This document shows positions 5,236 to 23,355 of a DNA stretch of 64,000 nucleotides, in pieces. The notes beneath the pieces are model-generated. The model was not told the DNA's origin and searched no databases. It saw only the letters and a program-made list of their open reading frames with translations. The stretch lies in the NCBI RefSeq assembly GCF_034530835.1, contig NZ_JAVRCI010000020.1, forward strand, positions 11,572-75,571, read 5' to 3'. Within the stretch, counting starts at the first letter, position 1. Every line of letters starts with the position of its first letter. Source of the stretch: Nostoc sp. DedQUE12b (GTDB lineage: Bacteria; Cyanobacteriota; Cyanobacteriia; Cyanobacteriales; Nostocaceae). The translations under genes and the position numbers were made by a program.

Positions 5236-6792
5236 ATGACAACCAATATTGAAACCTCACGTTCTGATACACCAACTAGCACCCCAGTGTTAGAAATGCA
5301 AGGAATTACAAAACGATTTCATGGTGTATCTGCGCTCCAAAATGTTAATCTCACGATTTACCCAGGAGAAGTTCACGCCCTCATGGGTGAAAACGGAGCG
5401 GGCAAAAGCACATTGATGAAAATCCTGGCAGGGGCTTACATTGCCGACGAAGGAGAAATTCGCATCAATAGTCAACCCTTGAAAATCACCGATCCGGCGA
5501 CAGCACGCAAGGCGGGTATTAATCTCATTTATCAAGAATTGAATGTTGCACCGAATTTAACCGTTACCGAAAATATGTTTATGGGTAGCGAGTTGCGGCG
5601 AGGTCAGTTTTTAGACCGCAAAGCGATGCAACAAGAAGCAGAAGAAGTGCTGGAAAGCCTTGGAGCCAATTTTACTGCGCAGACTATAGTTGGTACCTTA
5701 TCGATCGCTGAACAGCAGCAAGTGGAAATTGCCCGAGCGCTGAAGGATAAAAGCCGCGTTTTAGTGATGGATGAACCAACAGCTGCCCTATCTGACCGCG
5801 AGAGCGACCATTTATTTGAGGTCATTCGCAAACTGCGGCGTGATGGTATTGCCATTATCTACATCAGCCATCGCATGGAAGAAATCTATGCCCTAGCTGA
5901 TCGGATTAGCGTGTTGCGTGATGGTCAATATATTGGCAGTCTGACACGCAGTGAAATTTCTCCCCAGCGATTAGTGCAGATGATGGTTGGTCGCTCCATG
6001 CAAGACTTTTACGAACATCAACGGCAAATGAATCCTGGGCCAGTGGTGCTGTCAGTCAGAAATATGAGCGACGCCCGCAAAAAGATTGAGCCGGCTAGTT
6101 TTGAACTTCATGCTGGAGAAATTCTGGGTTTAGCTGGGTTGGTTGGTGCCGGACGCACAGAACTATCCCGGCTGATTTTTGGTGCAGACCGTAAAGCTAG
6201 TGGCGAAGTATTCTTGAATGGGATGAAACTGGAAATTAATAGCCCCAGTGATGCCATTGCTGCGGGAATTGGCTACGTTCCAGAAGACCGCAAAGATCAA
6301 GGTTTATTTCTGGAAATGAGTGCCCGCAAGAATATTGCCATCAACACACTCAAGCAAGATGCAAAGGGTGGAATTGTTAACTGGCCTTCAGTGAATCGCC
6401 TGTCAACAGATGCGGTGGAAAACTTTAATATCCGCCTAGCCAATTTGGAAATTAGAGCGCTCGATCTTTCTGGTGGTAATCAACAGAAGCTATTGCTAGC
6501 GCGTTGGTTAGCCATTAAACCGCGAGTGTTGATGTTAGATGAGCCGACACGCGGCGTAGATATCGGTGCTAAAAGCGAAATTTATCGAATCATGAGCGAA
6601 TTAGCAGCACAAGGTGTTGCTATTTTAATGGTTTCCAGCGAACTATCAGAGATTGTCGGCATGAGCGATCGCGTCTTAGTGATGCGAGAAGGACAGCTGG
6701 TAGGTGAGCTGGATGGCAGTCTTGGCAAAGAAATCACCCAAGAAAAGATTATGCACTACGCAACTGGAGCATCGGAGGTATCAGCATTATGA
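5236..6792 (+). CDS. frtB: Sugar ABC transporter ATP-binding protein (two NBDs, RbsA type)
   Basis: GENGAGKS Walker A, VMDEPT Walker B, second half LSGGNQQK and LDEPTRGVD. Confidence 0.9.
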
Positions 6793-7787
6793 GTCAAACA
6801 GTCAGACCGCCTATCAATAAATCAGCCAACAATCCCGCAGCTCGCAACCGGAAATCAATCAGCAGTCTGTTGGAAGTTGCAGGTATTTTGCCAATTTTAG
6901 TAATTATCTGCATCTTATTTGCATTCCTTTCTCCCAACTTCCTCACCGGCGGTAACATCGTCAATATCTTGCGTCAGGCATCAATCAATATTGTGCTGGC
7001 GACAGGAATGACTTTTGTAATTCTCACCGGCGGTATTGACCTTTCGGTTGGGTCAATATTGGCTGTTTCTGCGGTAGTTGCATTGCTGGTATCACTACTA
7101 CCGGCTTTAAGTTGGGCAGCTGTACCTGCTGCGTTGCTTGCAGGATTGCTGTTAGGCTTACTCAACGGTGCGCTCATTACCTTCTTGGATGTGCCACCTT
7201 TTATTGTCACGCTGGGTTCACTTACAGCCTTACGGGGTGTTGCCTTTTTAATTGCCAAGGGTACAACCCTGATTAATCGGGACATAAATTTTGCTTGGGT
7301 GGGTAATACATACGTCGGCCCCATTCCTTGGCTAGTGATAATTGCGTTACTGACTGTGATAGCTAGCTGGTTTATCCTGCGGCAAACTGTTTTAGGAGTG
7401 CAGATATATGCTGTGGGTGGTAACGAACGGGCAGCCAGATTAACAGGGATTAAAGTTAATCGGGTGTTGCTATTCGTCTATGGTATTAGCGGATTACTAG
7501 CAGGTTTAGCAGGAATCATGAGTGCTAGCCGTCTTTATAGTGCCAGTGGCGTAATAGGTCAGGGGTACGAATTAGATGCGATCGCAGCTGTTATTCTAGG
7601 TGGAACCAGCTTTACAGGTGGTATTGGTACCATTGGTGGCACCCTTTTAGGTGCATTAATTATTGCGATTCTCAACAACGGTTTAACCTTGTTGAACCTA
7701 TCTTACTTCTGGCAACTAGTCGTCAAAGGACTAGTAATTATTTTGGCAGTAACGATCGATCGGTTACGCAGACGTTCTAGACGGTGA
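6789..7787 (+). CDS. frtC: Sugar ABC transporter permease (RbsC type)
   Basis: [32 protein letters not shown] and [14 protein letters not shown] motifs; ATGA overlap with frtB. Confidence 0.9.
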
Positions 7788-7901
7788 ACAAAAGGCAGGG
7801 GAGCGGGGGAGCAGAGGAGAAGTTGCAGTAAGTCTTTCCCCTCTGCCCCTCTCCCCCTCCGCCCCTCTGCCTTCTATACCCAATTCTCAATATATAAACT
7901 T

Positions 7902-8206
7902 ATGTCTTCTACTACTGTTCGTCGTAAAGCCAGCACGTTTTATGTAATTTTGATCGCTGGTGCCGCTGCCCTCGGCGGGTTTTTATTCGGTTTTGGCACT
8001 GCTGTAATCAATGGTGCGCACTTTCGATTGCTGCTGCTATGCAATGGGTTGCTAATTTCCTCATTTCGACAACATTTCCTCCGATACTGCAATATTTCGG
8101 TCTAGGTTCTGCCTATGGACTCTATACAGTTGCAGCAGCTACCTCATTCTTTTTCATTCTCTTTTTTATTAAAGAAACCAAAGAAATTGAGTTAGAGGAT
8201 ATGTAA
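7902..8206 (+). pseudogene. glcP: Glucose:H+ symporter (sugar porter MFS) with a large internal deletion
   Basis: N-terminal 39 codons (AALGGFLFGFGTAVINGA) are joined out of frame at about 8017 to the C-terminal 62 codons (ALSIAAAMQWVANFLISTTFPP...IKETKEIELEDM*, stop 8204-8206). Confidence 0.88.
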
Positions 8207-8251
8207 TTTGTACTCTTCATCAAGTCTGATTTTGCTACAAGTATTAAGGTA

Positions 8252-8285
8252 AGAATTCAGGAGTCAGAATTCAGAATTCAGAATA
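8252..8285. repeat. Heptamer-type short tandem repeats (AGAATTC); similar tracts at 1804-1832, 3613-3635, 7795-7870 and 35038-35105
   Basis: agaattcaggagtcagaattcagaattcagaat, typical of intergenic repeats in heterocystous cyanobacteria. Confidence 0.7.
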
Positions 8286-8497
8286 GTTAAAGAATTAGGA
8301 GATAATTGGATACATAAATGTACTAATCATGCTGCATTCCTTTTCAATTATGACTTTTGAGTTCTGAATGCTGAATTATTACATTTGTAGTAAGCACTTT
8401 AGTGCTTAGATGAAAGTTAGAGCCACCCACTACGAACTTATCAAAATTAATTTGGTGAACTAAATACAAACTCTCGCTTCAGTCAATCACTAAAAAG

Positions 8498-9553
8498 ATG
8501 GAAACTATCAATACGGCTCTTTGTTCATCTGGTTTATCCGGCATGGTATTTCATGCGCCGTTTATTGATTTACATCCCGGATTTAAATTAGCTGGTTCTT
8601 GGGAAAGAAGCAAAAAGCTGATACAGGAAAATTATCCTGATGTTAAAAGCTATCCTTCTTTGGAAGCATTGCTAGCAGATGAGCAAGTAATCTTGGTGGT
8701 AGTAAATACACCCACTTATACCCATTACGATTATGCTAAACAGGCATTGCTTGCAGATAAGCATATAGTGGTAGAAAAAGCATTCACCACAACGGTAGCA
8801 GAAGCAGAACACCTCAAAGAATTGGCACACAAACAGGGAAAAAAATTATCTATATATCAAAACCGGAGGTGGGATAGTGATTTTCAAACAGTCAAAAAAA
8901 TTGTTCAAGCGGGCTTATTAGGTGATATTGTTGAAGCAGAATTTCAATTTCAAAAATATAAGCCAACCCTTAGTCATAAACAACATGTTGAAGTTCCCAG
9001 TCCGGGGGCAGGAACATTAAACAATTTAGGGCCGCACTTAATAGACCAAGCTTTGCATTTATTTGGAATGCCCAATGCTATTTTTGCAGATATCCGTATA
9101 ACTAGGCTGCGATCGCAGGTAGATGATTGTTTTGAGTTGATACTATACTACGACAAACTGCGCGTCAAATTAAAAGCAGGTTTCCTTGTACGTGAACCTG
9201 CACCTGCCTACATCATACATGGCACTCATGGTTCTTTTCTTAAAAGCAGAGCCGATAAACAAGAAGAGTATTTAGTGGCGGGTATGAAGCCTAACACACT
9301 TGATTGGTATACAGAACCGGAAAGTGAATATGGCTTGCTTCATACAGAAAAAGACACAAAAGTAATTCGGGAAAAAGTCAAAAGTTCACAGGGCAGTTAT
9401 TTAGATTATTACGATGCAGTATATAAATCTATTGTTAGTAATCAGCCAATTGCTGTTACTGCCGAAAACGGAATTAATGTAATGAAAATTATAGAAGCCG
9501 CTATGAAAAGCAGCAATGAGCAAAAAGTCATAACATTGCTTGAAGTGAGCTAA
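8498..9553 (+). CDS. Gfo/Idh/MocA family oxidoreductase (YdgJ/IolW-like)
   Basis: GLSGMVFHAP N-terminus, HIVVEKAF, YQNRRWDSDF, LGPHLIDQAL. Confidence 0.85.
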   Translation: METINTALCSSGLSGMVFHAPFIDLHPGFKLAGSWERSKKLIQENYPDVKSYPSLEALLADEQVILVVVNTPTYTHYDYAKQALLADKHIVVEKAFTTTVAEAEHLKELAHKQGKKLSIYQNRRWDSDFQTVKKIVQAGLLGDIVEAEFQFQKYKPTLSHKQHVEVPSPGAGTLNNLGPHLIDQALHLFGMPNAIFADIRITRLRSQVDDCFELILYYDKLRVKLKAGFLVREPAPAYIIHGTHGSFLKSRADKQEEYLVAGMKPNTLDWYTEPESEYGLLHTEKDTKVIREKVKSSQGSYLDYYDAVYKSIVSNQPIAVTAENGINVMKIIEAAMKSSNEQKVITLLEVS

Positions 9554-9663
9554 AACTCCAACTTAAAATATGTAACTTTAATGTTGATTAGCTCATACTT
9601 TGGTTCGAGGATAACTTCTTTCGTTACAAGCTCGTAATTCAACCATTTTAAATTAATAAATCA

Positions 9664-11277
9664 ATGCTAAAAACTATTTTTCCTAGCTTTTTTATTTTAT
9701 TTTTGGCAATTCCAGCAGTTTGGGCAGTACCTCCAGAAGACGATCCGAATGCAACAGATGCTAATCGGACTTTGCAGGGACAAGTCACTTCTGTTTCCCA
9801 GTTTTCTGATGTACAACCAACCGATTGGGCATTTGGTGCATTGCAATCGTTAGTCGAACGCTACGGTTGTATTGCAGGTTATCCCAATTCCACCTATCGC
9901 GGCAACCGTGCCTTAACCCGTTATGAGTTTGCCGCAGGTTTAAATGCTTGTTTGGATCGGATTAATGAGTTAATTGCCACAGCTACTAGCGATTTAGTTA
10001 ATAAGCAAGATTTGGCAGTGATGCAAAAGTTGCAGCAAGACTTTGCCGCAGAACTGACAACTCTGCGCGGACGAGTAGATACCTTAGAGGCACAGACAGC
10101 AACATTGGAGGCGCAGCAGTTTTCCACAACTACTAAGTTGAATGCTCAAATTATTACCGCTATTAGTGATACCTTTGGCGATCGAGTAGGTGGTGAAGAT
10201 GATGAATCCAATCTCTACTTTGCAAATCGGGGTCGTCTCAACTTTGAGAGCAGTTTTACGGGCAAAGATTTGTTGCGAGTCCGGCTGGAGTTTGGCAACT
10301 TTGCGAATTCCAATGGTGCAAGCCAAATTGCCGCAGCCACAGGCACAGGGATGACACGCCTGAATTTCGATTATGACAGCAACAATACACTTTTTGTCCC
10401 CCACATCCGTTATTACTTCCCAGTCAGTGAATCCCTAAACTTCGTTGTTGGGCCTACAGGCATTGGTTACACCGACATTTCAACTACCGTCACTCCTCCC
10501 ACAATTGCTGACGACGGCAATGGGGTTCCCTCACTTTTTGGATCGTACAGTCCCTTATTCCGGCGAGGTGGCGGCGGTGCAGCCGCTAACTGGAACATTA
10601 CCAAAGACTTGGTTCTCACCTTGGGCTATTTAGCAAGCACTCCCAATGTGCCATCGGCGAGCAACGGGTTGTTTGATGGTGGCTACAATGCCCTAGCGCA
10701 CTTAGCCTATTATGGTAAGCAAGGAGCGATCGGTGTTGCCTACTCTCATGGCTATAGTCCTGCTGGAGTACCCGATGTCGCAGCTGGGACGGGTAGCGTC
10801 TTGTCAAACGCTCCCTTTGGCAACAACATTGCTACTTCCAACGATATTGTCGGCACACAGGGATACTATCGCTTCTCCCCGAATTTCCAAGTTCACGCTT
10901 GGGGTGGATATATTTGGGCAAATGCCGAGAGTTCTGGTTTGAGTGATATTTCTAATGGTAGGGGTGGAACAGATTCTGTATTTGTGAACAATGGTGACAA
11001 TGCCAATGTCTGGTTTGGGGCGATTGGTGTGTCGTTTCCTGATGTGGGTGGTAGAGGTAATCTGCCAGGAATTCTCTTTGGTATACCACCCCATGTTTCT
11101 AACAGTGATGTCCGTCAAGAGCGAGACAATGCTTACCATATCGAAGCATTTTATCGTTATCGACTAAATGACAACATCTCAGTGACTCCTGGTTTTTGGG
11201 TGATTCTCAACCCGGAAAACGATAGCAGAAATGATACGCAGTATGTGGGTGTGCTTCGCACAACCTTCGATTTTTAA
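9664..11277 (+). CDS. oprB: Carbohydrate-selective porin with SLH domain
   Basis: SLH motif DVQPTDWAFGALQSLVERYGC, coiled coil, FSTTTKL, beta-barrel ending RTTFDF. Confidence 0.85.
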   Translation: MLKTIFPSFFILFLAIPAVWAVPPEDDPNATDANRTLQGQVTSVSQFSDVQPTDWAFGALQSLVERYGCIAGYPNSTYRGNRALTRYEFAAGLNACLDRINELIATATSDLVNKQDLAVMQKLQQDFAAELTTLRGRVDTLEAQTATLEAQQFSTTTKLNAQIITAISDTFGDRVGGEDDESNLYFANRGRLNFESSFTGKDLLRVRLEFGNFANSNGASQIAAATGTGMTRLNFDYDSNNTLFVPHIRYYFPVSESLNFVVGPTGIGYTDISTTVTPPTIADDGNGVPSLFGSYSPLFRRGGGGAAANWNITKDLVLTLGYLASTPNVPSASNGLFDGGYNALAHLAYYGKQGAIGVAYSHGYSPAGVPDVAAGTGSVLSNAPFGNNIATSNDIVGTQGYYRFSPNFQVHAWGGYIWANAESSGLSDISNGRGGTDSVFVNNGDNANVWFGAIGVSFPDVGGRGNLPGILFGIPPHVSNSDVRQERDNAYHIEAFYRYRLNDNISVTPGFWVILNPENDSRNDTQYVGVLRTTFDF

Positions 11278-12020: not shown

Positions 12021-13946
12021 TTACTCGTGATGATTGCTTTTAAGTTGACCATCTTCCATATAAATAATGCGGTCAGCAATATCTAAAATGCGGTTGTCGT
12101 GGGTAACAAGTAAAATGGTACAGTCTTGTTCTTTAGCGAGCTTCTGCATTAGTTCAACAACATCGCGCCCAGATTTTTTATCGAGTGCGGCAGTAGGTTC
12201 ATCAGCTAAGACAATTTTAGGATAACTCACTAAAGCACGAGCAATAGCTACCCGTTGTTTTTGCCCACCAGAAAGATTTTCGGGGTAGTAATTGAGACGC
12301 TCTGCTAAACCAACAGCCTCTAGCATGGTCATTGCTTTGCTGTTTATATCATTATTTAAATACTCTTTATGCAATTCCAATGACATACGCACATTTTCTT
12401 GAGCAGTTAAAAATGTCATCAGGTTATGCGCTTGAAAAATATAACCAATTTGGCGGCGTAATTTAGCTAACTGCTGTTTATTAGCTCCACAAATTTCCTG
12501 CCCCAAAATTTTCAAACTACCTTCTTGAGCAGAACGCAAACCGCCCATTAAAGTCAAGAGAGTAGTTTTACCTGAGCCGGAAGGTCCAGTCAGAATTACA
12601 ATTTCCCCCGCATAAATTTCTAAGTTAATGTTAAATAACACTTGTTTGCGTAATCCACCTGACCCAAAATAATGATTGAGGTTATGCACCGAAATCACAG
12701 GTTCACAAATAGGGAACGATAAATTAGTGATGACTGATTTTACTTCAGGAGTTTGGCTTATCGACGAAACTAGGGCAGTGAGTAACATTATAGTTCCGGC
12801 TCCTACAAATAAACCTGTTAGGCTAACTTCAAGTAATGCTCCAGAAATAGCCTGAGACAAAGGATCAAGAGCTACAGCCGCAAACATTGTTAGACCCATG
12901 ATTCTTCCCTGCATATTTGCAGCTGTATTCTGTTGCAGCCAAGTTATACCCAGTACAGTGACAGTTCCACCCCCTATGCCCATCAGTCCAATTATTCCTG
13001 ATATTATCCAAAGCTGCTGCACAAATCCTAGTGCTATTAGTCCTGCACCCAGACCATAAGACAACAAAATCAGGGGGGTTTTGGGACTCTTGACTGCACT
13101 AAGTTGACTGGCAACTAAGACTCCGATTAATGCACCTATACCGTAAGCTGCTTGCAGATAACCAAATGTTGTGGCGTTACTTTCAAACCGGACATTGACT
13201 AAGGCTGCAACACCGATGATGATTGGCCCTAACATGGCGAAATTAATCATCGCTAGGAGCAATAGGCTGATGCGAATGGGAGGCTGTGTCCAGGCATATT
13301 TTAAACCTAAAATAATTTCACCTATCAAAGCTGGTTCCTGTGTTTCAGTAGCAAGAGGTTGGCGACGACGAATCCGAACCAGGTAGATAAAGAAACTACC
13401 AAACGCAAATATGAGTGTATTGATAGCAAAAGCAATGGTTAACCCAAACGCACCAATTATAAAACCTGCACCAGCAGGACCGATGACTTCGGTGATCTGT
13501 TCACTACCCTGCATCCAAGCGTTTGCTTCTGCCAGTTGGGATTTTCTGACTAATTGAGGCAGTAGGGCAAGAATCGCTGGATATAAAATAGCTTCCAACA
13601 ATCCAAACAGAATAGCGATCGCAATCAAATATATCAGTCGAACAGCATCAAATACTAATAAAGCAGTAGCCAAGGCAATCAAAACAGTATTAATCGTCGC
13701 AGCAATGATGGCAACATTTCTGGTTGACAAGCGATCGCTAATTGCACCTCCTATTAACATAAACAATGCTCGTGGAATGGCAGCCGCCACTAATACAGTT
13801 CCAACAGCCAATCCTGAACCCATTTTTTGGAGTACCAGCCATGTCAACGAGACAAACCAAAATTGAGCAGCACTCAAAATCAGCGTTTGTCCTAACCATA
13901 GCCAGCGAAAGTTAGGAAAATATAACGGCGATCGCAGCATATACAT
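12021..13946 (-). CDS. MFS permease fused to a DevA-family ABC ATPase
   Basis: About 400 aa of hydrophobic MFS (GAISDRLS motif), then EPVISVHNLNHYFG, GPSGSGKT, LSGGQKQRVAIARAL, LADEPTAALD, LLVTHD, all in one open frame. Confidence 0.8.
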   Translation of the reverse strand: MYMLRSPLYFPNFRWLWLGQTLILSAAQFWFVSLTWLVLQKMGSGLAVGTVLVAAAIPRALFMLIGGAISDRLSTRNVAIIAATINTVLIALATALLVFDAVRLIYLIAIAILFGLLEAILYPAILALLPQLVRKSQLAEANAWMQGSEQITEVIGPAGAGFIIGAFGLTIAFAINTLIFAFGSFFIYLVRIRRRQPLATETQEPALIGEIILGLKYAWTQPPIRISLLLLAMINFAMLGPIIIGVAALVNVRFESNATTFGYLQAAYGIGALIGVLVASQLSAVKSPKTPLILLSYGLGAGLIALGFVQQLWIISGIIGLMGIGGGTVTVLGITWLQQNTAANMQGRIMGLTMFAAVALDPLSQAISGALLEVSLTGLFVGAGTIMLLTALVSSISQTPEVKSVITNLSFPICEPVISVHNLNHYFGSGGLRKQVLFNINLEIYAGEIVILTGPSGSGKTTLLTLMGGLRSAQEGSLKILGQEICGANKQQLAKLRRQIGYIFQAHNLMTFLTAQENVRMSLELHKEYLNNDINSKAMTMLEAVGLAERLNYYPENLSGGQKQRVAIARALVSYPKIVLADEPTAALDKKSGRDVVELMQKLAKEQDCTILLVTHDNRILDIADRIIYMEDGQLKSNHHE

Positions 13947-14047
13947 TTCACTACAGTAAATCTTTGCTCAAGTATCATTTCCCTGTTTTATTACTTTAGG
14001 GAGAGAAAAATAAATAATAGTTGGAAAAGCTTGAGGATAGAAGCAAA

Positions 14048-14779
14048 CTACACTTTATTCTCAAAATAATTGTTGTCTTGCTCATTCTTGTCAACATAAT
14101 TCTTGCGAAATATCTTCTCAGTCAAGAGATAAGGAATCGGCAATAAAAACCAGACATACTCCCACCAAGATTGATCTATAATAGCGACTGCTATTGTAAA
14201 TAATGAGAAAACAGGCTCTATCAAGATTATCCATCGCGTCAAAATAATAGTTTTACTATCTAGATCAGGAGTAATTAACCGATGCTTATGAGTCGCGTAA
14301 GTCCAGTTCGCAAATGATAGTAACCCAATCAGCGTAGTGTTTACACTGAAGCAGATTTTGACAATTGCATTTCCTGGAAAATAGATGACTAAGGTATCAG
14401 AATAAGGAATCAGAAACATACTCATCAGATAGAGTAAGTAGAGTGATATATGAATATCATCTGATTTTTTGTAATACCTAAATTGCTTAATATGATCAAG
14501 CCAATAGTAACCTACAATAACAAATGCGATTGCATAGCTGGTAAGTGGTTTTACTTGAGCTAGTAAAAATCTAAAAACTTCTGAATTTGTAGGCTGCTGA
14601 AGCTCTTCTGGAAAACCAAGAGTAAAGAAGCACTGTGCCATTGCCAGTGCGAAGATAATATCAGCTATTCTTCCAAGGCGAACAATAGAGCTATTTTGAG
14701 CAGAATTATTGTCTTGAGCTTCATTCATTAAACTATTTCTTATTGATTTTAGAGGATGTATAAAAAACTCCACCCACAA
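14048..14779 (-). CDS. TMEM175 (DUF1211) family channel protein
   Basis: RLGRIADIIFALAM, SYAIAFVIVGYYWLDHIKQF and LIPYS motifs; alternative start at ATG 14728. Confidence 0.75.
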   Translation of the reverse strand: MWVEFFIHPLKSIRNSLMNEAQDNNSAQNSSIVRLGRIADIIFALAMAQCFFTLGFPEELQQPTNSEVFRFLLAQVKPLTSYAIAFVIVGYYWLDHIKQFRYYKKSDDIHISLYLLYLMSMFLIPYSDTLVIYFPGNAIVKICFSVNTTLIGLLSFANWTYATHKHRLITPDLDSKTIILTRWIILIEPVFSLFTIAVAIIDQSWWEYVWFLLPIPYLLTEKIFRKNYVDKNEQDNNYFENKV

Positions 14780-14899
14780 GGAGATGAAGTTTTACCTAAT
14801 GGGGAATAAGGAAGAGTCACCAATGCCCAATGCCCCAAGTCGGCGGGGGAACTATCCCTCTCTTGGGGATGGAGAGGAATAGCCGACTTTCTATGAAGC

Positions 14900-15556
14900 T
14901 TACCCTATTTCTGCGAGCAGTTTACCCCATTTCTCGTAGAAATTAGCTTGTCGCTGTTGGATTAAGACTAACTGGAATTGCGAATAATCAGGATTACTCT
15001 GTAAGGCATTTATGAGATTCTCTTTACTTTCAGAATCCATAAAATCTAACAATGGCTGCCTAACGTCCAGAGCGCAATTCAAAGCCTCAGTCATCCGAGA
15101 AAACCAGATCGGCGAATAAGTTTTATAGTTTACAGCACGGATATCTTTCCTACAGTTCTGACTACCACACTTACATACCGCATAAGTTCTATCGTTAGAT
15201 TTGAAACATGCATCAAGCAAGGCATAATCTAATGTTATTTCCTCACCTTCAGCAATATTCCTTACGGCAATGGATACCGCATATCCAGTAATAAGAGTGT
15301 TAAAGTCACAGCTATGGTTTATATACTTGGCATTATTCCAATTCAAAACGACATTACCTTCCATATTCACATAAGCAAAAAAATCGATCATTTCCCTAAA
15401 ATTTACATCTAAAGAAGCAAACTTGTCTGGTGTAACCTCTATATCAAGAGGATCTTCATACACAACAATAGTCCCTTTGGGAATTGGTTCAGTGGCAAAA
15501 ATACCATATCCAATTTCTGAATTAACAAAGCGAACTTCAGTTGAATGATGTAGCAT
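14900..15556 (-). CDS. SET-domain protein (putative SAM-dependent methyltransferase) with post-SET cysteines
   Basis: GYGIFATEPIPKG, YINHSCDFN, EEITLDY, CKCGSQNCR. Confidence 0.88.
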   Translation of the reverse strand: MLHHSTEVRFVNSEIGYGIFATEPIPKGTIVVYEDPLDIEVTPDKFASLDVNFREMIDFFAYVNMEGNVVLNWNNAKYINHSCDFNTLITGYAVSIAVRNIAEGEEITLDYALLDACFKSNDRTYAVCKCGSQNCRKDIRAVNYKTYSPIWFSRMTEALNCALDVRQPLLDFMDSESKENLINALQSNPDYSQFQLVLIQQRQANFYEKWGKLLAEIG

Positions 15557-15674
15557 TATTCTTTAACCTTACTTTTGTAAAAACTTGGAATCGCAGCGGC
15601 ACTTTCAGCAACAGTTTCTATCCTTCAGAGGTTGTCTGAAAAGCATACTCTGTAGTTGGCTTTGGTCTTCATGG

Positions 15675-15974
15675 TCAGGTTGAGTGGCAAAAAGAAATAG
15701 AGAATAGGTGATTAATATCTTCGCCAAAATAGAGGTAAATGCCAATACGAAGATGATCTAGGCTATCAACATCAATTTGGTTGTTCCATAATTGTCTATA
15801 AGTATCTAGGATACCGTATAAAATATCTAGATTATCTGCACATAGGCCCTGCTGTGCTTCTGGTAATTTATATCAGGGAATAGTAGGACAAAAATGGTGA
15901 ACATAGTGATAACTTGCATTATGAAAGAAAAAATTAACGACTTTTCTTGAATAAAGTTTGTTTAGGTAATCATG
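15675..15974 (-). pseudogene. C-terminal remnant of a membrane fatty-acid desaturase (not in the ORF track)
   Basis: Minus-strand frame reads KVVNFFFHNASYHYVHHFCPTIP*YKLPEAQQGL. This is the third His box (HxxHH at 15894-15908) followed by P-x-I-P-W-Y-x-L-P, with TGG changed to TGA at 15873-15875. Confidence 0.75.
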
Positions 15975-16165
15975 AAAAGTCTACAGATGATAAGCCTGTA
16001 GGAGGTGTGATGCCACAGCCTAACGCACTGAAAATCTCTGATGGTGCGTTAAGACTAATGTCTATAACGCACCTTACCAGATAGATTCAAGCCAATGTAG
16101 ATCAGGTTTTTTTACTACTATCCCTAGCCAGTACTCAATTAATTTGACACCAGTTAAACACTCAG

Positions 16166-19100
16166 TTATTCAGCACTACTTAGCACAAAATCTACATATT
16201 GATGAGTAAACTGCTTCTCACATGGCGGACACCAGTGTAAATAAGTATCAACTTGGTCTGTATTGATATTCCTGAACATCGTATTAAATTGTTTTTCTAA
16301 CTCAGGTGATACCACTGATTTCAATAGTTTCATGCCCTTTTTATCTGTATTCCGAACATACTCTTCATACTTATCAACAAAAGTTCTGAGTGGCACAATC
16401 TCAACGTCCTTATTCAATTTCTGGAAGTAGCTAATTACATCAGACCAATTCAGTGGTTCTGGATTATAAAAAGTGTAGTTGTGTTTTCTCTCATTAATAG
16501 ATAGTAACGATGTAGAAACGATCGTCTTAGCCGCATATTCAACTGACATCAAATCGAAATCAGCATCCATATCAGGAATACAACCTATATGAGAAATGGC
16601 ACAGAGGAAATTCTCAAAGGCATCTTCATCGATAAAAAAGTCGTCGTCTATATTCTCGTAAGCCTTTTCTATCAAGGCAAATAGTTTGTTCAATGGGGTG
16701 TTTTGCTCGATATGCTTGACCCGCAGGGTATATAAATAGCCTAATCGGTAGTTGACCCACGGGTATCCCTGTTCTGCGAGGCGTAATACGATTTGCTCTG
16801 TCACATACTTGGTTTGTGCATATCCATTAACAAGACCAATGGGGATAGGTTGATTTGCGCAGTCTTCTAGCAAGGACGCGGCACAACTCGACACATTGTA
16901 AAGAGATTTAACCTTTCCGGCTAATGCGAAATCTGCAACTTCAATAGTGCCAATAACATTGGTATTTTTGATGATGTCGTATGGTAGATAGAAGTTATCT
17001 ACAGCCGCTACATGATATACGCTATCAATGTTTTGTGCTAATTCTTCATAGCGATCATTTTCTAGCCCAAATCGCTTCTTAGACATATCACCGATAATAA
17101 TTTGTACGCGATTCTCCCATCCTGGTAAGAAATGAACATCGAACTTTCGCGCTGTTTTTTTGATTCGTTGAAGACCTGCTTCTTCATTGGCTGCTCGAAC
17201 TAAACAAGCAATATTGAGATTAGTAGTGTCGAGCAGTTCTTTTAAAAAATAAGTACCGACAAAACCCGATGCTCCGGTAAGTAAGCAAGTATTGGTTTGA
17301 CGGCTCTGGCTTACACTAACTTCGTTGTCACGACGACGAAGAAGGTATTCTAAAGCATTTTCTATTTCTATATTTAGAGGTTGGCTGTGTGTCAGTCTAA
17401 CTTTCGACCCGCCTTCACCAGAGATGGCACGAACTATATCGTCAATCATCCCCAAGAAGGTATTCGCATAGAAAAAAGCTTCTGTAGGAATTTGACAACC
17501 TAGTTCCCCTTCAAGTGTGCTATGAATTTCAATGATTTTTAAAGAGTCGATTCCATAGAAAAAGATTGACTTCTCTACATCAAAATCAGCCATTCGTACC
17601 TGATATCTCTTAGTTAGAATCTGTATGAGGCTAGTAAAGACCTTGAGGTGCATTGGCCCCATAGATGTGATCCGTTCAAATGTCTTTTCAATATTCAACA
17701 TACTTACGTCTCCTTTTGATTGAGTTCTAGATTCTTCTTTAGGCCATTTAGCTAGAGCATCAAGATTGTTTTGGAGAAACTCTTGTTTGCACTGTTGTCT
17801 ACGGATTTTGCCGCTAGATGTTTTCGGGATTTGCATATGTCCTAAAAACACGAGTTGGCGTAAGGGCATCTCGAAGTTATCTCCCAAAGCGAGACAAATA
17901 GCTTCAGCCAGTTCCTCCAAATAACTAGCTCGACGCAGATTGATGACACCTGTTTTTGTTAATTCAGCAAAAATTACCAATTCCTCGCCAGCTTCACCTG
18001 GGACACTAAAAGCGGCGACACAACTGAAGCGAATATCAGGATGTGCCTGCTGCACACAAATCTCAATGTCTTGGGGGTAGTAATTCACACCATTGACGAT
18101 AATGATGTCTTTGATTCGGCCTGTAATGTATAGTTCGCCCTTCTCATCAATAAAGCCCAGATCACCGGTACGGAGGTAAGTCCGACTGTCATCTGGCAAA
18201 GAAACTAGGGTCTTGTCCGTGGCTTCTGGATTGTTGTAATAACCAGCCATGACGTTAGAACCAGTAGTCCAAATTTCTCCGACATGATTTGGGGATAATA
18301 CACAATTTTTATCAGGATCGACAATATAAATTCTTTGGTCTAGCCAAGGGTGTCCACAACCGACAAAAACCTTTTCTTTGCTGCTGTCGGTCGCTTCTTG
18401 GGCTATGTTGTACTGACCCAGTGCTGTCCAATCAACTGCCTTAAAAACTGGGTCTTGATCAACATATCCAGAAGATATGTATACTGTCGCCTCGGCCATG
18501 CCATAAGCAGGGAGGAACATATGAGGCTTGAATCCGTTTTCCGCAAACTTTTCACAGAAGTCCCGTATAGTTTCTGGATTGATGGGTTCGGCGGCGTTAA
18601 TTGCCATCCGCAACGAGGATAGATCGAGGGTCTTTTGATCGCTGGGCTGGATTTTATCAACACATAGTTGATAGGCGAAGTTAGGTGCACCTGTATATGC
18701 AGCACGGTATTTACTAATGGCACGTAGCCATTGTATTGGTTGGGAGGCAAAGGTTGCTGGGGCGAGTAGCACACAATGACCGCCACTATAAAGGCTGTGC
18801 AGAAGATGAGCGACTAAACCGAGGTCGTGATAGTGTGGCAACCAAGATACTGAAGTAGAATCGGCATCGGCATGACTCATGGCTACAATCATCTCTAGGT
18901 TATTGAGACAATTTTTATGGCTAATCATCACACCTTTTGGTAGTGAGGTCGAACCAGAAGTGAACTGCAAGAAAGCGATCACCGAGCCATCGATCTCTGG
19001 AAGAGGTAACTTCTGAGAGTTCAATGCCTCTTTAGTCATGTCTGTTGGTACATAAATCAGATCCTTAGGCCAGTTTTCTTCTTTGCTTAAGACATCATAA

Positions 19101-19480
19101 AAAGCTTGTTGATGGCTAGCAGGAAGTAGTATTGCTGAGGCTTTTGTGGCAACTACGATATCTGCAATTTTCTTGTTGGAACGATTGTGTTTTGGGATAT
19201 GGATAGGTGCAGGCAATACCCCAGCATAAAGGCATCCGAAGAATGCAACTATAAATTCGATTCCAGGTGGATAAAGCAAAATGGCATTCTGTGATCGCAG
19301 TCCCTGAGATAACAACCCTTGGGCTATATCAATAGCCTGAGAGTACATATCTTTGTAGGTAATATAGCTATTCTCTGCACCATGAGAATCGAGCATTGTA
19401 TAAGCCCTACGGTCAGGCTGTACCTCAGTCCAGTAAGTAAGAACCTCAGCCAAGTTATTAAAGCCTTGAGACTTGATCAT
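16166..19480 (-). CDS. Fatty acyl-AMP ligase - acyl carrier protein - thioester reductase (FAAL-ACP-R)
   Basis: FLQFTSGSTSLPKGV, WLPHYHDLGL, PAYGMAEATV, YLRTGDLGF, IPKTSSGKIRR (FAAL); YGIDSLKI (phosphopantetheine Ser); LLTGASGFVG and YAQTK (extended SDR R domain). Confidence 0.9.
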   Translation of the reverse strand: MIKSQGFNNLAEVLTYWTEVQPDRRAYTMLDSHGAENSYITYKDMYSQAIDIAQGLLSQGLRSQNAILLYPPGIEFIVAFFGCLYAGVLPAPIHIPKHNRSNKKIADIVVATKASAILLPASHQQAFYDVLSKEENWPKDLIYVPTDMTKEALNSQKLPLPEIDGSVIAFLQFTSGSTSLPKGVMISHKNCLNNLEMIVAMSHADADSTSVSWLPHYHDLGLVAHLLHSLYSGGHCVLLAPATFASQPIQWLRAISKYRAAYTGAPNFAYQLCVDKIQPSDQKTLDLSSLRMAINAAEPINPETIRDFCEKFAENGFKPHMFLPAYGMAEATVYISSGYVDQDPVFKAVDWTALGQYNIAQEATDSSKEKVFVGCGHPWLDQRIYIVDPDKNCVLSPNHVGEIWTTGSNVMAGYYNNPEATDKTLVSLPDDSRTYLRTGDLGFIDEKGELYITGRIKDIIIVNGVNYYPQDIEICVQQAHPDIRFSCVAAFSVPGEAGEELVIFAELTKTGVINLRRASYLEELAEAICLALGDNFEMPLRQLVFLGHMQIPKTSSGKIRRQQCKQEFLQNNLDALAKWPKEESRTQSKGDVSMLNIEKTFERITSMGPMHLKVFTSLIQILTKRYQVRMADFDVEKSIFFYGIDSLKIIEIHSTLEGELGCQIPTEAFFYANTFLGMIDDIVRAISGEGGSKVRLTHSQPLNIEIENALEYLLRRRDNEVSVSQSRQTNTCLLTGASGFVGTYFLKELLDTTNLNIACLVRAANEEAGLQRIKKTARKFDVHFLPGWENRVQIIIGDMSKKRFGLENDRYEELAQNIDSVYHVAAVDNFYLPYDIIKNTNVIGTIEVADFALAGKVKSLYNVSSCAASLLEDCANQPIPIGLVNGYAQTKYVTEQIVLRLAEQGYPWVNYRLGYLYTLRVKHIEQNTPLNKLFALIEKAYENIDDDFFIDEDAFENFLCAISHIGCIPDMDADFDLMSVEYAAKTIVSTSLLSINERKHNYTFYNPEPLNWSDVISYFQKLNKDVEIVPLRTFVDKYEEYVRNTDKKGMKLLKSVVSPELEKQFNTMFRNINTDQVDTYLHWCPPCEKQFTHQYVDFVLSSAE
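17701..17716 (-). promoter_or_regulatory. Internal Shine-Dalgarno sequence and in-frame ATG (Met594) at the start of the ACP-R half
   Basis: Minus strand reads AAAGGAG-acgtaagt-ATG with an 8-nt spacer. Confidence 0.45.
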
Positions 19481-20017
19481 CTAACAAAATCCTCAATCAA
19501 ATTTGTTGGATATTGCAAAAGTCATATATTGACTAAATGACAAACTTGTTAACCACAAATCCTGAATAATTATGGTGCAAAGGTGCAGGGGCTTTAGGGA
19601 AAGAACTATTTAATATATGAACAACCCAGTTGAATGTTCCGTTTCACCTACACTGCTACACATTCACACCCAACGTTCAAAAGGGTTTTGGCTTATTTTA
19701 GTGCCATTTTTTCATGAACTGACATCACTTCTTACTTGAATTTTGGACGAATTAATCTTCGTTAAAAAATTGCGTGGATTCCTTAATGTCCATAATTCTA
19801 ATGATTTTTGCAATTCGTTAGCTTAATGCAGTATATCGAAGTAACAATAATACTTAAAAGTAAAAATTAAGTTAAGCAACATTTACTTTTAAGTTAACTT
19901 TCGATAAACAAAGTAAGGGGAAAACCACAATCAGGCGATTCCCCTGCACATTATCGATCAGAAGTTGCATACTTTCTCATATCATTTCACTTTAGAGTTA
20001 ATACATTTAGGCAAGCT

Positions 20018-20066
20018 CTCACGGCAGTGGTGTTTTGGTAAAACCTCAAAACACCACTGCCGTGAG
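20018..20066. other. Perfect 20-bp inverted repeat (9-nt loop) between the Coq4-like gene and FAAL-ACP-R
   Basis: CTCACGGCAGTGGTGTTTTG-gtaaaacct-CAAAACACCACTGCCGTGAG. Confidence 0.8.
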
Positions 20067-20183
20067 GCTGGAGAAGTGAACTGTATCAGTATCTTCGTGA
20101 AATATTATTAGTTCATTTTCTGGATTTTACTTCTACAGTAGACCATGCCAGTTTCCATAGTACACTTATCTATTTGAGGTTCC

Positions 20184-20936
20184 TCAAGTCAGCACAGGTT
20201 CAATCTGGAAAATGGGTTGGATATTCAGTTCTGCCTGCCATACAGCAACTGGTTTTTCCCAGGCTTCTTCCCATTTTTGAGCAATCAATGGTTTAGCTGT
20301 TTGCCCCATTTCCCATCCCTTGGCGATCGCACTTAGAAGTAGAGATAGTTCGTCTGGTTGCAATAATGTAGTACTGATCAGGCTATTAGCGATGAGCATA
20401 CTTGCAAGGGGTAGCTGAAACTGCGCTAGATAGAAAGCTTGCAAACCAATTTCACCGATTTCACTAGTGTCGAATCCGGTAATAATGTGCCAGATATCGT
20501 GGGTTTGTTGCCAGCGATTTTCTACATAGCTGGTATCTGAGTCAATTTTGACTTTTGCCGTTATTGTCTGCAAACCTGCCTCTTTCAAACTACTGGCATA
20601 GGTATAGCCTAAGGAATCTTGGGGATATTCCAACAAGGCTTTGAGATCGTGGGGAGGAGCCATATAGCGTTCAGCAATAATTGAGGCGACTTCTGGCTTG
20701 GCTTTCATAGACTCAACAGTGAGCTGGAAGGCTCGATTGTCAACTAGGCTAGTACTTAACTCCTCAACTAAATCTAGATTTCCTCTATCGTCAAGAAGTA
20801 CTTTCAAAAATGCTTTTGTAGTTTTAAAAATACGAAAGAAGTTTTTTACACTCGTCCATATTGAGCCATTGGCTTGTGGCTTCCCGCTCTGATTACTTGT
20901 GACTGATGATAAATACTTGTAATTCATAGACTCCAT
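20184..20936 (-). CDS. Coq4 family protein
   Basis: YPQDSLGYTY and QTHDIWHIITGFDTSEIGEIGLQAF (HDxxH...E metal motif of Coq4). Confidence 0.85.
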   Translation of the reverse strand: MESMNYKYLSSVTSNQSGKPQANGSIWTSVKNFFRIFKTTKAFLKVLLDDRGNLDLVEELSTSLVDNRAFQLTVESMKAKPEVASIIAERYMAPPHDLKALLEYPQDSLGYTYASSLKEAGLQTITAKVKIDSDTSYVENRWQQTHDIWHIITGFDTSEIGEIGLQAFYLAQFQLPLASMLIANSLISTTLLQPDELSLLLSAIAKGWEMGQTAKPLIAQKWEEAWEKPVAVWQAELNIQPIFQIEPVLT

Positions 20937-20972
20937 TGGATTATCTTTAATGAGTGGAATTATCGTAATATA

Positions 20973-21011
20973 TGAACAATGTTCACATATCTATAATATG
21001 AACATTGTTCA
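20973..21011. promoter_or_regulatory. Twin TetR-type operators TGAACAWTGTTCA
   Basis: TGAACAATGTTCA at 20973-20985 and TGAACATTGTTCA at 20999-21011, between the divergent starts of the Coq4-like gene and TetR. Confidence 0.8.
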
Positions 21012-21036
21012 GATTATGCAAGGGTAATTTTAAATA

Positions 21037-21669
21037 ATGGCAGATAATTTTCCAAAGCCTGTAAGAACGAGACGACAGCCAAAGCAGGCACGTAGCCAGG
21101 AGCGCGTCAACTGCATCCTTGGTGTTGCCGAACAGTTATTTATTGAACTGGGGTATGACCAGACTACAACAAGAGCGATCGCATCTCGTGCCGACATTCC
21201 TATAGGATCGCTCTATCAGTTTTTTCCTGATAAAAAAGCGATCCTTAAAGCTTGGGCAAATCAGTATTTTGAGCAAGAATATCAACTGTTTGTACAACTT
21301 CACTCCGAACTAGCCGAAGTACCAATCGAAGTCTATGTTGAGCGCATGGTTGGCGCTTTTGACCAGTTTGCAACCGATAATCCTGGCTATCGAGCTGTAC
21401 TAGAACAATTGATCGATTTGATGATAGCAAGCGATATTAGTACCCTAGATAATTACGACTCACAAATTCTCAAAGAACTTGCCCATTTTCTGATACAGCG
21501 AAATCCTTCTTTAGATATTGCAATGAGTGAATTAATTGCTACAACTGTTGTGAAAGTTGTTAACGAGATGCTATGGCTTTCGCTTACCCGTGATCAAGTC
21601 TTTCGCAAACAAATTTTAGCAGAGACAAAAATATTAATTACAGCGTACTTACAAACTTACCAAATTTAA
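21037..21669 (+). CDS. TetR/AcrR family transcriptional regulator
   Basis: RRQPKQARSQERV...TTTRAIASRADIPIGSLYQFFPDKKAI helix-turn-helix. Confidence 0.92.
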   Translation: MADNFPKPVRTRRQPKQARSQERVNCILGVAEQLFIELGYDQTTTRAIASRADIPIGSLYQFFPDKKAILKAWANQYFEQEYQLFVQLHSELAEVPIEVYVERMVGAFDQFATDNPGYRAVLEQLIDLMIASDISTLDNYDSQILKELAHFLIQRNPSLDIAMSELIATTVVKVVNEMLWLSLTRDQVFRKQILAETKILITAYLQTYQI

Positions 21670-22092: not shown

Positions 22093-23355
22093 TTAAGAAT
22101 CTGTAAATTTTTTGAAAGCTAGGCTGACATTGTGACCACCAAAACCAAAGGAATTAGAAATAGCTAAATCTATCTTCTGTTTTCGACTTTGGTGTGGAAC
22201 ATAATCCAAATCACATGCTGGATCAGGAGAATCTAAATTGATGGTAGGAGGAATTTCATCTTTTGCAACTGTTAATGCTGTGGCGACTGCTTCAATACCT
22301 CCAGAACCGCCCAAAAGGTGGCCAGTCATGGATTTTGGCGAACTAATACTAATATTATAAGCGTGTTGTCCTAAGGCTTTTTTGATTGCTAAGGTTTCAT
22401 TAACATCATTGGCAGGCGTACTAGTACCATGAGCATTAATGTAGCTGACTTGATTCACGGATAAACCAGCATCTTTGATTGCTAGTTCTATAGCTCTAGC
22501 AGCTCCTATACCTCCAGGAATGGGAGATGTCATGTGGTAAGCATCACAGGTCATCCCATAGCCAACGATTTCTGCATATATGTTAGCTCCACGGCTTTTG
22601 GCATGTTCTAGTTCTTCTAGGAACAGAATGCCAGCTCCTTCCCCCATGACAAATCCATCGCGGTCATAGTTAAAAGGACGAGAAGCGCAAGTTGGTTCTT
22701 CGTTACGAGTTGATAGAGCTTTGGCAGCAGCAAACCCAGCAACTAATAAAGGGGTAATGGGTGCTTCTGTACCACCGCAGATCATAGCTTGAGCATAACC
22801 CTGTTGAATTAAACGAAAAGCTTCTCCTATAGCATTGCTCCCCGCAGCACAGGCGGTGACTGTACAGGAGTTAGGGCCTTTTGCTCCTGTATGAATTGCT
22901 ATTAATCCAGCAGCCATATTGGCAATAAACATTGGTATCAAAAAAGGACTACATCGGTCGGGGCCTTTGGTGAGATAAATTTCTTGTTGTTTTTCTAAAA
23001 CATTCATGCCTCCACAACCATTACCGATGATTGCCCCAACTAAAGGGGCATTTAATTCAGTGATTGTGAATTTAGCATCTGCGATCGCTTGTAGGCTAGC
23101 ACACACTGCAAAGTAAGCATAGCGATCCATACGTTTAACTTCCTTGCGCTCTAAATAATCACATGGATCAAAGCCTTTGACCTCTGCTGCAATCTGACAG
23201 TCGTGTTTTGAGGCATCAAAACACCTAATAGGTGCGACACCACTACGGCCTTGCATTAGCCCCTGCCAATATTCTGCTACAGTGTTTCCTATGGGGGTAA
23301 TTGCTCCTAAACCTGTAATTACTACACGTTTTAACTGCAAGTTTTGCATAATCAA
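22093..23355 (-). CDS. fabF: Beta-ketoacyl-ACP synthase II, stand-alone copy
   Basis: RVVITGLGAITPIG, TACAAG (catalytic Cys), INAHGTST, GHLLGG, SNSFGFGGHN; likely ATG at 23349. Confidence 0.92.
   Translation of the reverse strand: MIMQNLQLKRVVITGLGAITPIGNTVAEYWQGLMQGRSGVAPIRCFDASKHDCQIAAEVKGFDPCDYLERKEVKRMDRYAYFAVCASLQAIADAKFTITELNAPLVGAIIGNGCGGMNVLEKQQEIYLTKGPDRCSPFLIPMFIANMAAGLIAIHTGAKGPNSCTVTACAAGSNAIGEAFRLIQQGYAQAMICGGTEAPITPLLVAGFAAAKALSTRNEEPTCASRPFNYDRDGFVMGEGAGILFLEELEHAKSRGANIYAEIVGYGMTCDAYHMTSPIPGGIGAARAIELAIKDAGLSVNQVSYINAHGTSTPANDVNETLAIKKALGQHAYNISISSPKSMTGHLLGGSGGIEAVATALTVAKDEIPPTINLDSPDPACDLDYVPHQSRKQKIDLAISNSFGFGGHNVSLAFKKFTDS

Follow-up and report, generated by a model that had tools for sequence, protein, structure and literature searches.

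The closest described counterparts of the gene cluster reported here are the JamABC and TtuABC terminal-alkyne cassettes and the cay and pgn polyyne clusters, which combine a FAAL, an ACP and membrane desaturases. In known systems of this composition the desaturases work on a carrier-bound acyl chain (PMC10088813, PMC9828172, PMC8406139); thus JamB acts on hexanoyl-JamC (PMC10088813), and the desaturases of thiotemplated polyyne pathways act on acyl-ACP (PMC9828172). The present cluster, on which we found no paper in the literature, differs from these in having the ACP joined to the FAAL in one protein, with a thioester reductase after it where the Jam, Ttu, cay and pgn systems have a thioesterase or PKS, and in its additional SET-domain, Coq4-like and TMEM175-like genes. 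The fusion protein (FAAL-ACP-R) shares its adenylation-carrier-reductase order with carboxylic acid reductases and FadD9-type A-T-R enzymes, although its adenylation domain is, unlike theirs, of the FAAL type. The likeness to the alkyne and polyyne systems is one of gene content, that is, a FAAL, a carrier domain and one or more adjacent PF00487 genes, and this combination occurs in the clusters of relatives but not in the 64,000-nucleotide stretch of Nostoc sp. DedQUE12b DNA analysed here (the window). What the window has in place of the adjacent gene, which belongs to the PF00487 membrane diiron desaturase/hydroxylase family and which we call des1, is almost certainly a non-functional stub of that gene, whose intact form encodes about 300-310 aa and whose ancestral place was just downstream of FAAL-ACP-R. 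The stub is an ordinary deletion pseudogene in a rare and highly plastic cluster.

All genes of the window's cluster lie on the minus strand except that for a divergent TetR (21037..21669, plus strand), which is common to the related genomes G185 and G147, as is the Coq4-like gene (20936..20184). Upstream lies FabF (23355..22093), and downstream of the Coq4-like gene comes FAAL-ACP-R, an intact gene of 1104 aa (16166..19480; Pfam AMP-binding, PP-binding and NAD_binding_4). Beyond the des1 remnant follow a SET-domain gene (14900..15556; Pfam SET), a TMEM175-like membrane protein gene (14048..14779) and a gene for an MFS permease fused to a DevA-type ABC ATPase (MFS-ABC; 12021..13946), which ends every variant of the cluster. 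The remnant itself, identified by Pfam, blastn, tblastn and alignment, occupies 15731..15940 of the minus strand and comprises the 3' quarter of the gene, from codon 234/235 on; for the 174 bp that separate it from SET (15557..15730, minus strand), neither the cluster loci retrieved nor the rest of the genome yielded a homologue.

The first-pass annotation had quoted from this region a minus-strand frame, ...VNFFFHNASYHYVHHFCPTIP*YKLPEAQ..., and had taken it for the last His box of membrane desaturases, altered by a TGG-to-TGA change and deprived of its 5' part. The frame is present letter for letter, its minus-strand reading being ...TFHDYLNKLYSRKVVNFFFHNASYHYVHHFCPTIP*YKLPEAQQGLCADNLDILYGILDTYRQLWNNQIDVDSLDHLRIG...*, and all three parts of the interpretation were borne out. 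It matches PF00487 (FA_desaturase) with 37 bits against a gathering threshold of 29.7 (E 4.2e-9), the match being restricted to profile positions 203-236 of 253, which contain the third His box. The similarity search that the annotation had suggested does recover intact desaturase orthologues: by tblastn the stub is 82% identical in amino acids to residues 234-301 of the 312 in G147 des1 (E 4.7e-31), by blastn it has 90.7% DNA identity to positions 9700-9914 of the G147 locus, and BLASTP alignments of the surviving part with the closest annotated orthologues give 63-82% aa identity. The in-frame TGA (15873..15875) replaces the Trp of PTIPWYKL, for which every intact orthologue has TGG at that codon; when 34 members of the family are aligned, conservation of this residue (W256 in the Mojavia copy) is 90% or higher. 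The three His boxes of PF00487 enzymes bind the diiron centre. Only the third, HYVHH, remains in the stub (15908-15894); boxes 1 (HEAVH) and 2 (HHFPHH) of the relatives fall within a deleted segment of 718 bp.

The deletion could be placed exactly, by alignment and string search, at 15941/15940 (minus strand). Reading down the minus strand, the window aligns without a break from 19624 to 15944 with positions 5282-8971 of the G147 locus, a segment that holds FAAL-ACP-R and its entire downstream spacer, and then from 15941 to 15731 with G147 9700-9914, the 3' end of des1. The missing 718 bp are positions 8983-9700 in both G147 and G185 (loci L135 and L136), so that both flanks of the deletion are collinear with two relatives, and microhomology at the junction amounts to at most 1 nt. 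The lost segment held the Shine-Dalgarno sequence GAGAGGAA, the ATG and des1 codons 1-234 of 312, three quarters of the gene in all. The four membrane helices predicted for des1 likewise lie inside the deleted part; a structure model of an intact orthologue has its long helices at residues 14-67 and 130-220. The remnant carries two further lesions, a 3-bp deletion at 15790..15791 that turns LIRNNQ into LWNNQ, and a 1-bp deletion near the old 3' end at 15743..15744, which shifts the frame so that it runs on to a stop at 15677-15675. Although it scores above the Pfam threshold, the stub cannot be a working PF00487 enzyme, for it lacks a start codon and codons 1-234, is bounded by stops at either end and is interrupted by the TGA. 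An exact match to the junction sequence was found in no metagenome searched.

Dispersed GTGCGTTA/TAACGCAC repeats had been described as sitting in place of the lost 5' part. The copies exist, but they do not stand where the desaturase once was; they are part of the original spacer that follows FAAL-ACP-R (15941..16165, minus strand), which is collinear from 16165 to 15941 with the spacers of G147 and G185. Within it are a hairpin of the form GGTGCGTTA-N13-TAACGCACC at 16073-16043, a third GTGCGTTA copy at 16030-16018 and, at 16001-15971, a terminator-like hairpin with a trailing T-run, all three at the same positions in the spacers of both relatives, and hence the repeats are spacer and not filler. 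The spacer RNA folds more stably than is usual, at -63 kcal/mol (z -3.19), and an Rfam search of 15400-16300 returned no match. The hairpin-bearing spacer is conserved in two other genera, and the hairpin may be a terminator, attenuator or processing site. Genome-wide, the octamer is not enriched, with 162 copies where about 206 are expected, yet its paired form GGTGCGTTA-N-TAACGCACC is found eight times, which by simple arithmetic is far more than chance. The seven further sites of this family, GGTGCGTTA-N(8-14)-TAACGCACC, are at C4:93547, C7:26540, C22:27754, C43:54124, C45:2564, C48:12187 and C50:9228.

Two other candidates for the sequence upstream of the junction were considered and rejected. 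A whole-genome HMM match reaching back to profile position 149 could have marked a degraded upstream part of des1, but it contains five stops and runs on into the spacer, and since the spacer is homologous to those of relatives the extension is an alignment artefact of the run-on kind. Comparison with Aliinostoc and CMAA1605 had suggested 171 bp of non-homologous filler at this place, where closer relatives show the native spacer.

The ancestral state was reconstructed from relatives found in wider scans, outside the 40 genomes nearest to the window; in those 40 neither the stub nor FAAL-ACP-R has an orthologue, and the matches are confined to desaturases of 32-43% identity and FAALs of about 40%. 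When 389 Nostocaceae species genomes were scanned for a FAAL-ACP-R orthologue, it was found in nine, belonging to six genera; within the window's own genus, all the other species sampled lack it. Seven of the other eight carriers have an intact des1 downstream (296-341 aa, three His boxes each), which in five of them is the next gene after FAAL-ACP-R and in two lies beyond SET; their intact FAAL-ACP-R orthologues are 67-91% identical in amino acids to that of the window, which alone among the nine carriers pairs an intact FAAL-ACP-R with a dead des1. The remaining carrier, G170, has a truncated FAAL only (residues 96-585, with internal stops). In a tree of the FAAL domain the window is sister to G185 (support 97/98), itself a carrier of both des1 and a further desaturase-family gene, des2, and is nested within the des1-bearing clade, from which it follows that des1 is ancestral and its loss in the window derived. 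The view of the first-pass annotation that the ancestral operon had a desaturase after FAAL-ACP-R is thus supported both by this tree and by the intact PF00487 gene downstream in all seven relatives with an intact FAAL-ACP-R, a comparison with related strains that it had itself proposed. A homologue from Methylococcaceae (L035, 46%) was discarded as a guide to the ancestral order, having no PF00487 gene downstream and another context.

Gene order among the carriers is fluid. G185, in which FAAL-ACP-R is 91% identical to the window's and des1 is identical to the Mojavia pulchra JT2-VF2 copy, reads FabF, TMEM175, TetR, Coq4, FAAL-ACP-R, des1, des2, MFS-ABC, and G147 (FAAL-ACP-R 88%) reads TetR, Coq4, FAAL-ACP-R, des1, TMEM175, MFS-ABC, the TMEM175-like gene coming directly after des1 here and occupying other positions elsewhere. 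Aliinostoc sp. HNIBRCY26 and Nostoc sp. CMAA1605 have FAAL-ACP-R (83% aa), des1 (296 aa from a shared ATG), des2 (375 aa) and MFS-ABC. The order is FAAL-ACP-R, SET, des1, MFS-ABC, TMEM175 in G107, and the same in G124 except for an IS605 OrfB-type gene before SET; in G111 it is FAAL-ACP and R as split genes, des1, des2, des2, SET, MFS-ABC, TMEM175. Family members in Mojavia pulchra JT2-VF2, Aliinostoc sp. HNIBRCY26, Nostoc sp. CMAA1605 and Dolichospermum are annotated as 'fatty acid desaturase (family protein)'; these annotated intact orthologues are the same gene in the same place after FAAL-ACP-R as the stub, but are complete (296-312 aa, three His boxes), whereas the window keeps about the last quarter, with a stop and two indels. 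Among the variants we also noted that the inserted gene of G124 (L134 5012-6604) is of IS605 OrfB/TnpB type, encodes 530 aa and lies between FAAL-ACP-R and SET, and that in G111 (L141 5106-13263) two ORFs that overlap encode the FAAL-ACP (690 aa) and the reductase (530 aa), des2 is present as a tandem pair and an extra 228-aa ORF follows SET.

Divergence along the window points to more than one source. The des1 3' end (dS 0.09) and the TMEM175-like gene (dS 0.19) are closest to G147, and FAAL-ACP-R (dS 0.30) and MFS-ABC (dS 0.28) are closest to G185, while SET and the 174 bp preceding it are absent from both. In a Tolypothrix locus, counterparts of the window's SET 3' end and TMEM175-like gene follow one another as they do here. 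Across the variants the TMEM175-like gene is found in three positions and SET in three. Judged from these sequence comparisons, the cluster (window 12021-21669) is one rebuilt by recombination between variants, and the occurrence of FAAL-ACP-R in 9 of 389 genomes across six genera points to horizontal spread of the cluster.

The surviving part of des1 has evolved differently from its intact counterparts. Over 63 codons, with G107 as outgroup, 12 substitutions (9 of them nonsynonymous) are specific to the window and none to G147, and dN/dS is 0.73 between window and G147 as against 0.14 between G147 and G107, both intact. Fisher tests set the 9:3 ratio of nonsynonymous to synonymous changes apart from the 60:82 of FAAL-ACP-R on the window branch (p 0.036) and from the 116:184 obtained by pooling four intact genes (p 0.016). 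The stub is under relaxed selection relative to intact copies; this rests on 12 substitutions, and all signs agree.

Its neighbours present another picture: TetR, the Coq4-like gene, FAAL-ACP-R, SET, the TMEM175-like gene and MFS-ABC are all intact. FAAL-ACP-R, at 91% aa identity to G185, has a dN/dS of 0.11-0.15, and its ratio of 60:82 on the window branch compares with 45:71 on the sister branch, the window branch being no more relaxed than that of G185. For TetR, the Coq4-like gene, FAAL-ACP-R, the TMEM175-like gene and MFS-ABC pairwise dN/dS is 0.11-0.29. SET is looser, at 0.3-0.6 in all pairs, and keeps its NHSC and EEITxDY motifs; orthologues stand at other positions in the clusters of G107, G124 and G111, and SET is a recurrent but mobile member of the cluster family. 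The neighbours thus look constrained by pairwise dN/dS, a measure that could miss a very recent loss of function of the whole pathway. The genome holds no second des1, the best other match being 29% identical, and neither des2, which is absent from the genome, nor any other gene has left a remnant in the window. With no PF00487 enzyme of the cluster left and the neighbouring genes constrained, the cluster otherwise looks maintained.

Other explanations of the stub have been weighed against loss by deletion. That des1 is really intact and the region was collapsed or mis-called in the contig might be suspected, given that the deletion is known from one assembly, a draft of 153 contigs; against this, collapse would hardly produce four independent lesions (the 718-bp, 3-bp and 1-bp deletions and the TGA) together with a surplus of nonsynonymous changes, the flanks on either side are unique within a 100-kb contig, and the assembly is without any other des1-like sequence, so we consider such an artefact very improbable. 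Still less credible, to the point of being negligible, is a chance resemblance, or a live gene in which TGA is read as Trp or Sec from an alternative start. The open frame does extend 35 codons to one side of the TGA and 65 to the other, but stops lie in frame just upstream and a start codon is lacking, and chance would not yield an E-value of 4.7e-31 to orthologues at the syntenic position. The mapped deletion refutes both versions: the DNA for the first two His boxes and for the membrane helices is physically absent, so that no reading of the TGA restores an enzyme.

Retention of the stub for a new use, as a leader or promoter region of SET or as a small peptide or RNA, deserves somewhat more attention but is also unlikely. 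It would accord with the position of the stub directly upstream of SET, with the structured spacer before it, and with its 90.7% identity to G147 compared with 86% for FAAL-ACP-R. Yet the adjacent TMEM175-like gene is likewise close to G147 (dS 0.19), and the extension of high G147 identity into that gene argues for mosaic ancestry and not for constraint. No ORF of at least 40 aa spans the His box, the substitutions are mostly nonsynonymous and indels have accumulated, Rfam gave no match, and promoter-like matches are at chance level (3 found, 3.7 expected). The deletion pseudogene thus remains the preferred reading of the stub, and the sequence of events that it implies is short: a single 718-bp deletion removed ribosome-binding site, start codon, codons 1-234, His boxes 1 and 2 and the helices at once, and the surviving 3' quarter has since drifted, acquiring the change of TGG to TGA, the 3-bp and 1-bp deletions and its surplus of nonsynonymous changes.

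What des1 does in the relatives can be approached by comparison with curated families. 'Desaturase' is a family name, and desaturation and hydroxylation are not separable from sequence. The best curated model for des1 is GntB, the guanitoxin L-arginine gamma-hydroxylase (NCBIfam NF041365), to whose profile positions 16-282 of 308 residues 9-270 of des1 align (E 4.9e-25); the score of 88.6 bits falls short of the cut-off of 380, so that des1 is no GntB equivalog, and GntB stands in a gnt gene context where des1 stands in a lipid-type cluster. At the level of sequence the match indicates only that the PF00487 branch of des1 includes hydroxylases. A PDB sequence search for des1 gave no match, and a fold search with its model (pLDDT 88.9) matched only desaturase-like subunits of the Chlamydomonas Ycf2/Orf2971-FtsHi complex (TM 0.68), a predicted-structure result that is uninformative on its chemistry. 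Paralogues of des1 with 57-59% identity (L138 and L140, from the window's genus) adjoin fmt, for methionyl-tRNA formyltransferase, and an amine-oxidase-type FAD enzyme, with no FAAL. This setting suggests that the branch is perhaps not restricted to fatty-acyl substrates, and it leaves the gene neighbourhood as the one source for placing des1 on a carrier-bound chain.

By analogy with the FAAL, ACP and desaturase systems, the most likely role of des1 would be to oxidise an acyl chain while it is bound to the ACP of FAAL-ACP-R. In the relatives des1, with des2 where present, would oxidise the chain on this carrier before its reductive release, and the window's strain would then release an untailored chain, one not desaturated or not hydroxylated. 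We put the prospect that loss of des1 yields such an untailored product at about even. The first-pass annotation had allowed for a saturated product or none; with the remaining genes constrained in sequence, an altered product is probably more likely than none in this strain. A wider reading, which we offer as tentative and on balance doubtful, is that the cluster family represents a thiotemplated lipid pathway, built on FAAL-ACP-R and an MFS-ABC exporter, whose tailoring set (des1, des2, SET, Coq4-like and TMEM175-like genes) is swapped by recombination, and that the window is a selected, oxygenase-free variant. Were this so, the strain would make a distinct saturated or unhydroxylated product derived from an aldehyde or alcohol, and comparative metabolomics of what would be a natural knock-out could reveal both the chemistry of des1 and the product of the pathway.

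Whatever the fate of its product, the strain is a natural des1/des2-null to be set beside Mojavia pulchra JT2-VF2, Aliinostoc sp. HNIBRCY26 and Nostoc sp. CMAA1605, and a lipid common to these strains that differed by 2 Da or 16 Da would reveal the product and also the chemistry of an uncharacterised branch of membrane diiron oxygenases. Genome mining that predicted the product of this strain from its cluster family would mislead. The stub also fixes the ancestral content of a cluster found in so few Nostocaceae species genomes, and indicates a cluster that evolves by deletion, gene shuffling and recombination between variants.

Fragments of the cluster were also encountered elsewhere. In G052, from another genus, L144 8007-8420 is the opposite kind of des1 stub, retaining the N-terminal 141 residues only (73% identity to des1 of G147); on its upstream side is a distant SET-like gene, and its surroundings contain no FAAL-ACP-R. 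In Tolypothrix campylonemoides VB511288, locus L036 is truncated in the same pattern as G170, and the two are probably the same genome. The FAAL of L036, frameshifted near residue 100, breaks off after about residue 578, where it is fused to the last 85 bp of SET; TMEM175 comes next, with no MFS-ABC after it, and ACP-R, the spacer and des1 have been lost along with most of SET. The segment L036 11775-11861, equivalent to window position 17756 joined to 14984, represents a second, independent decay of the cluster.
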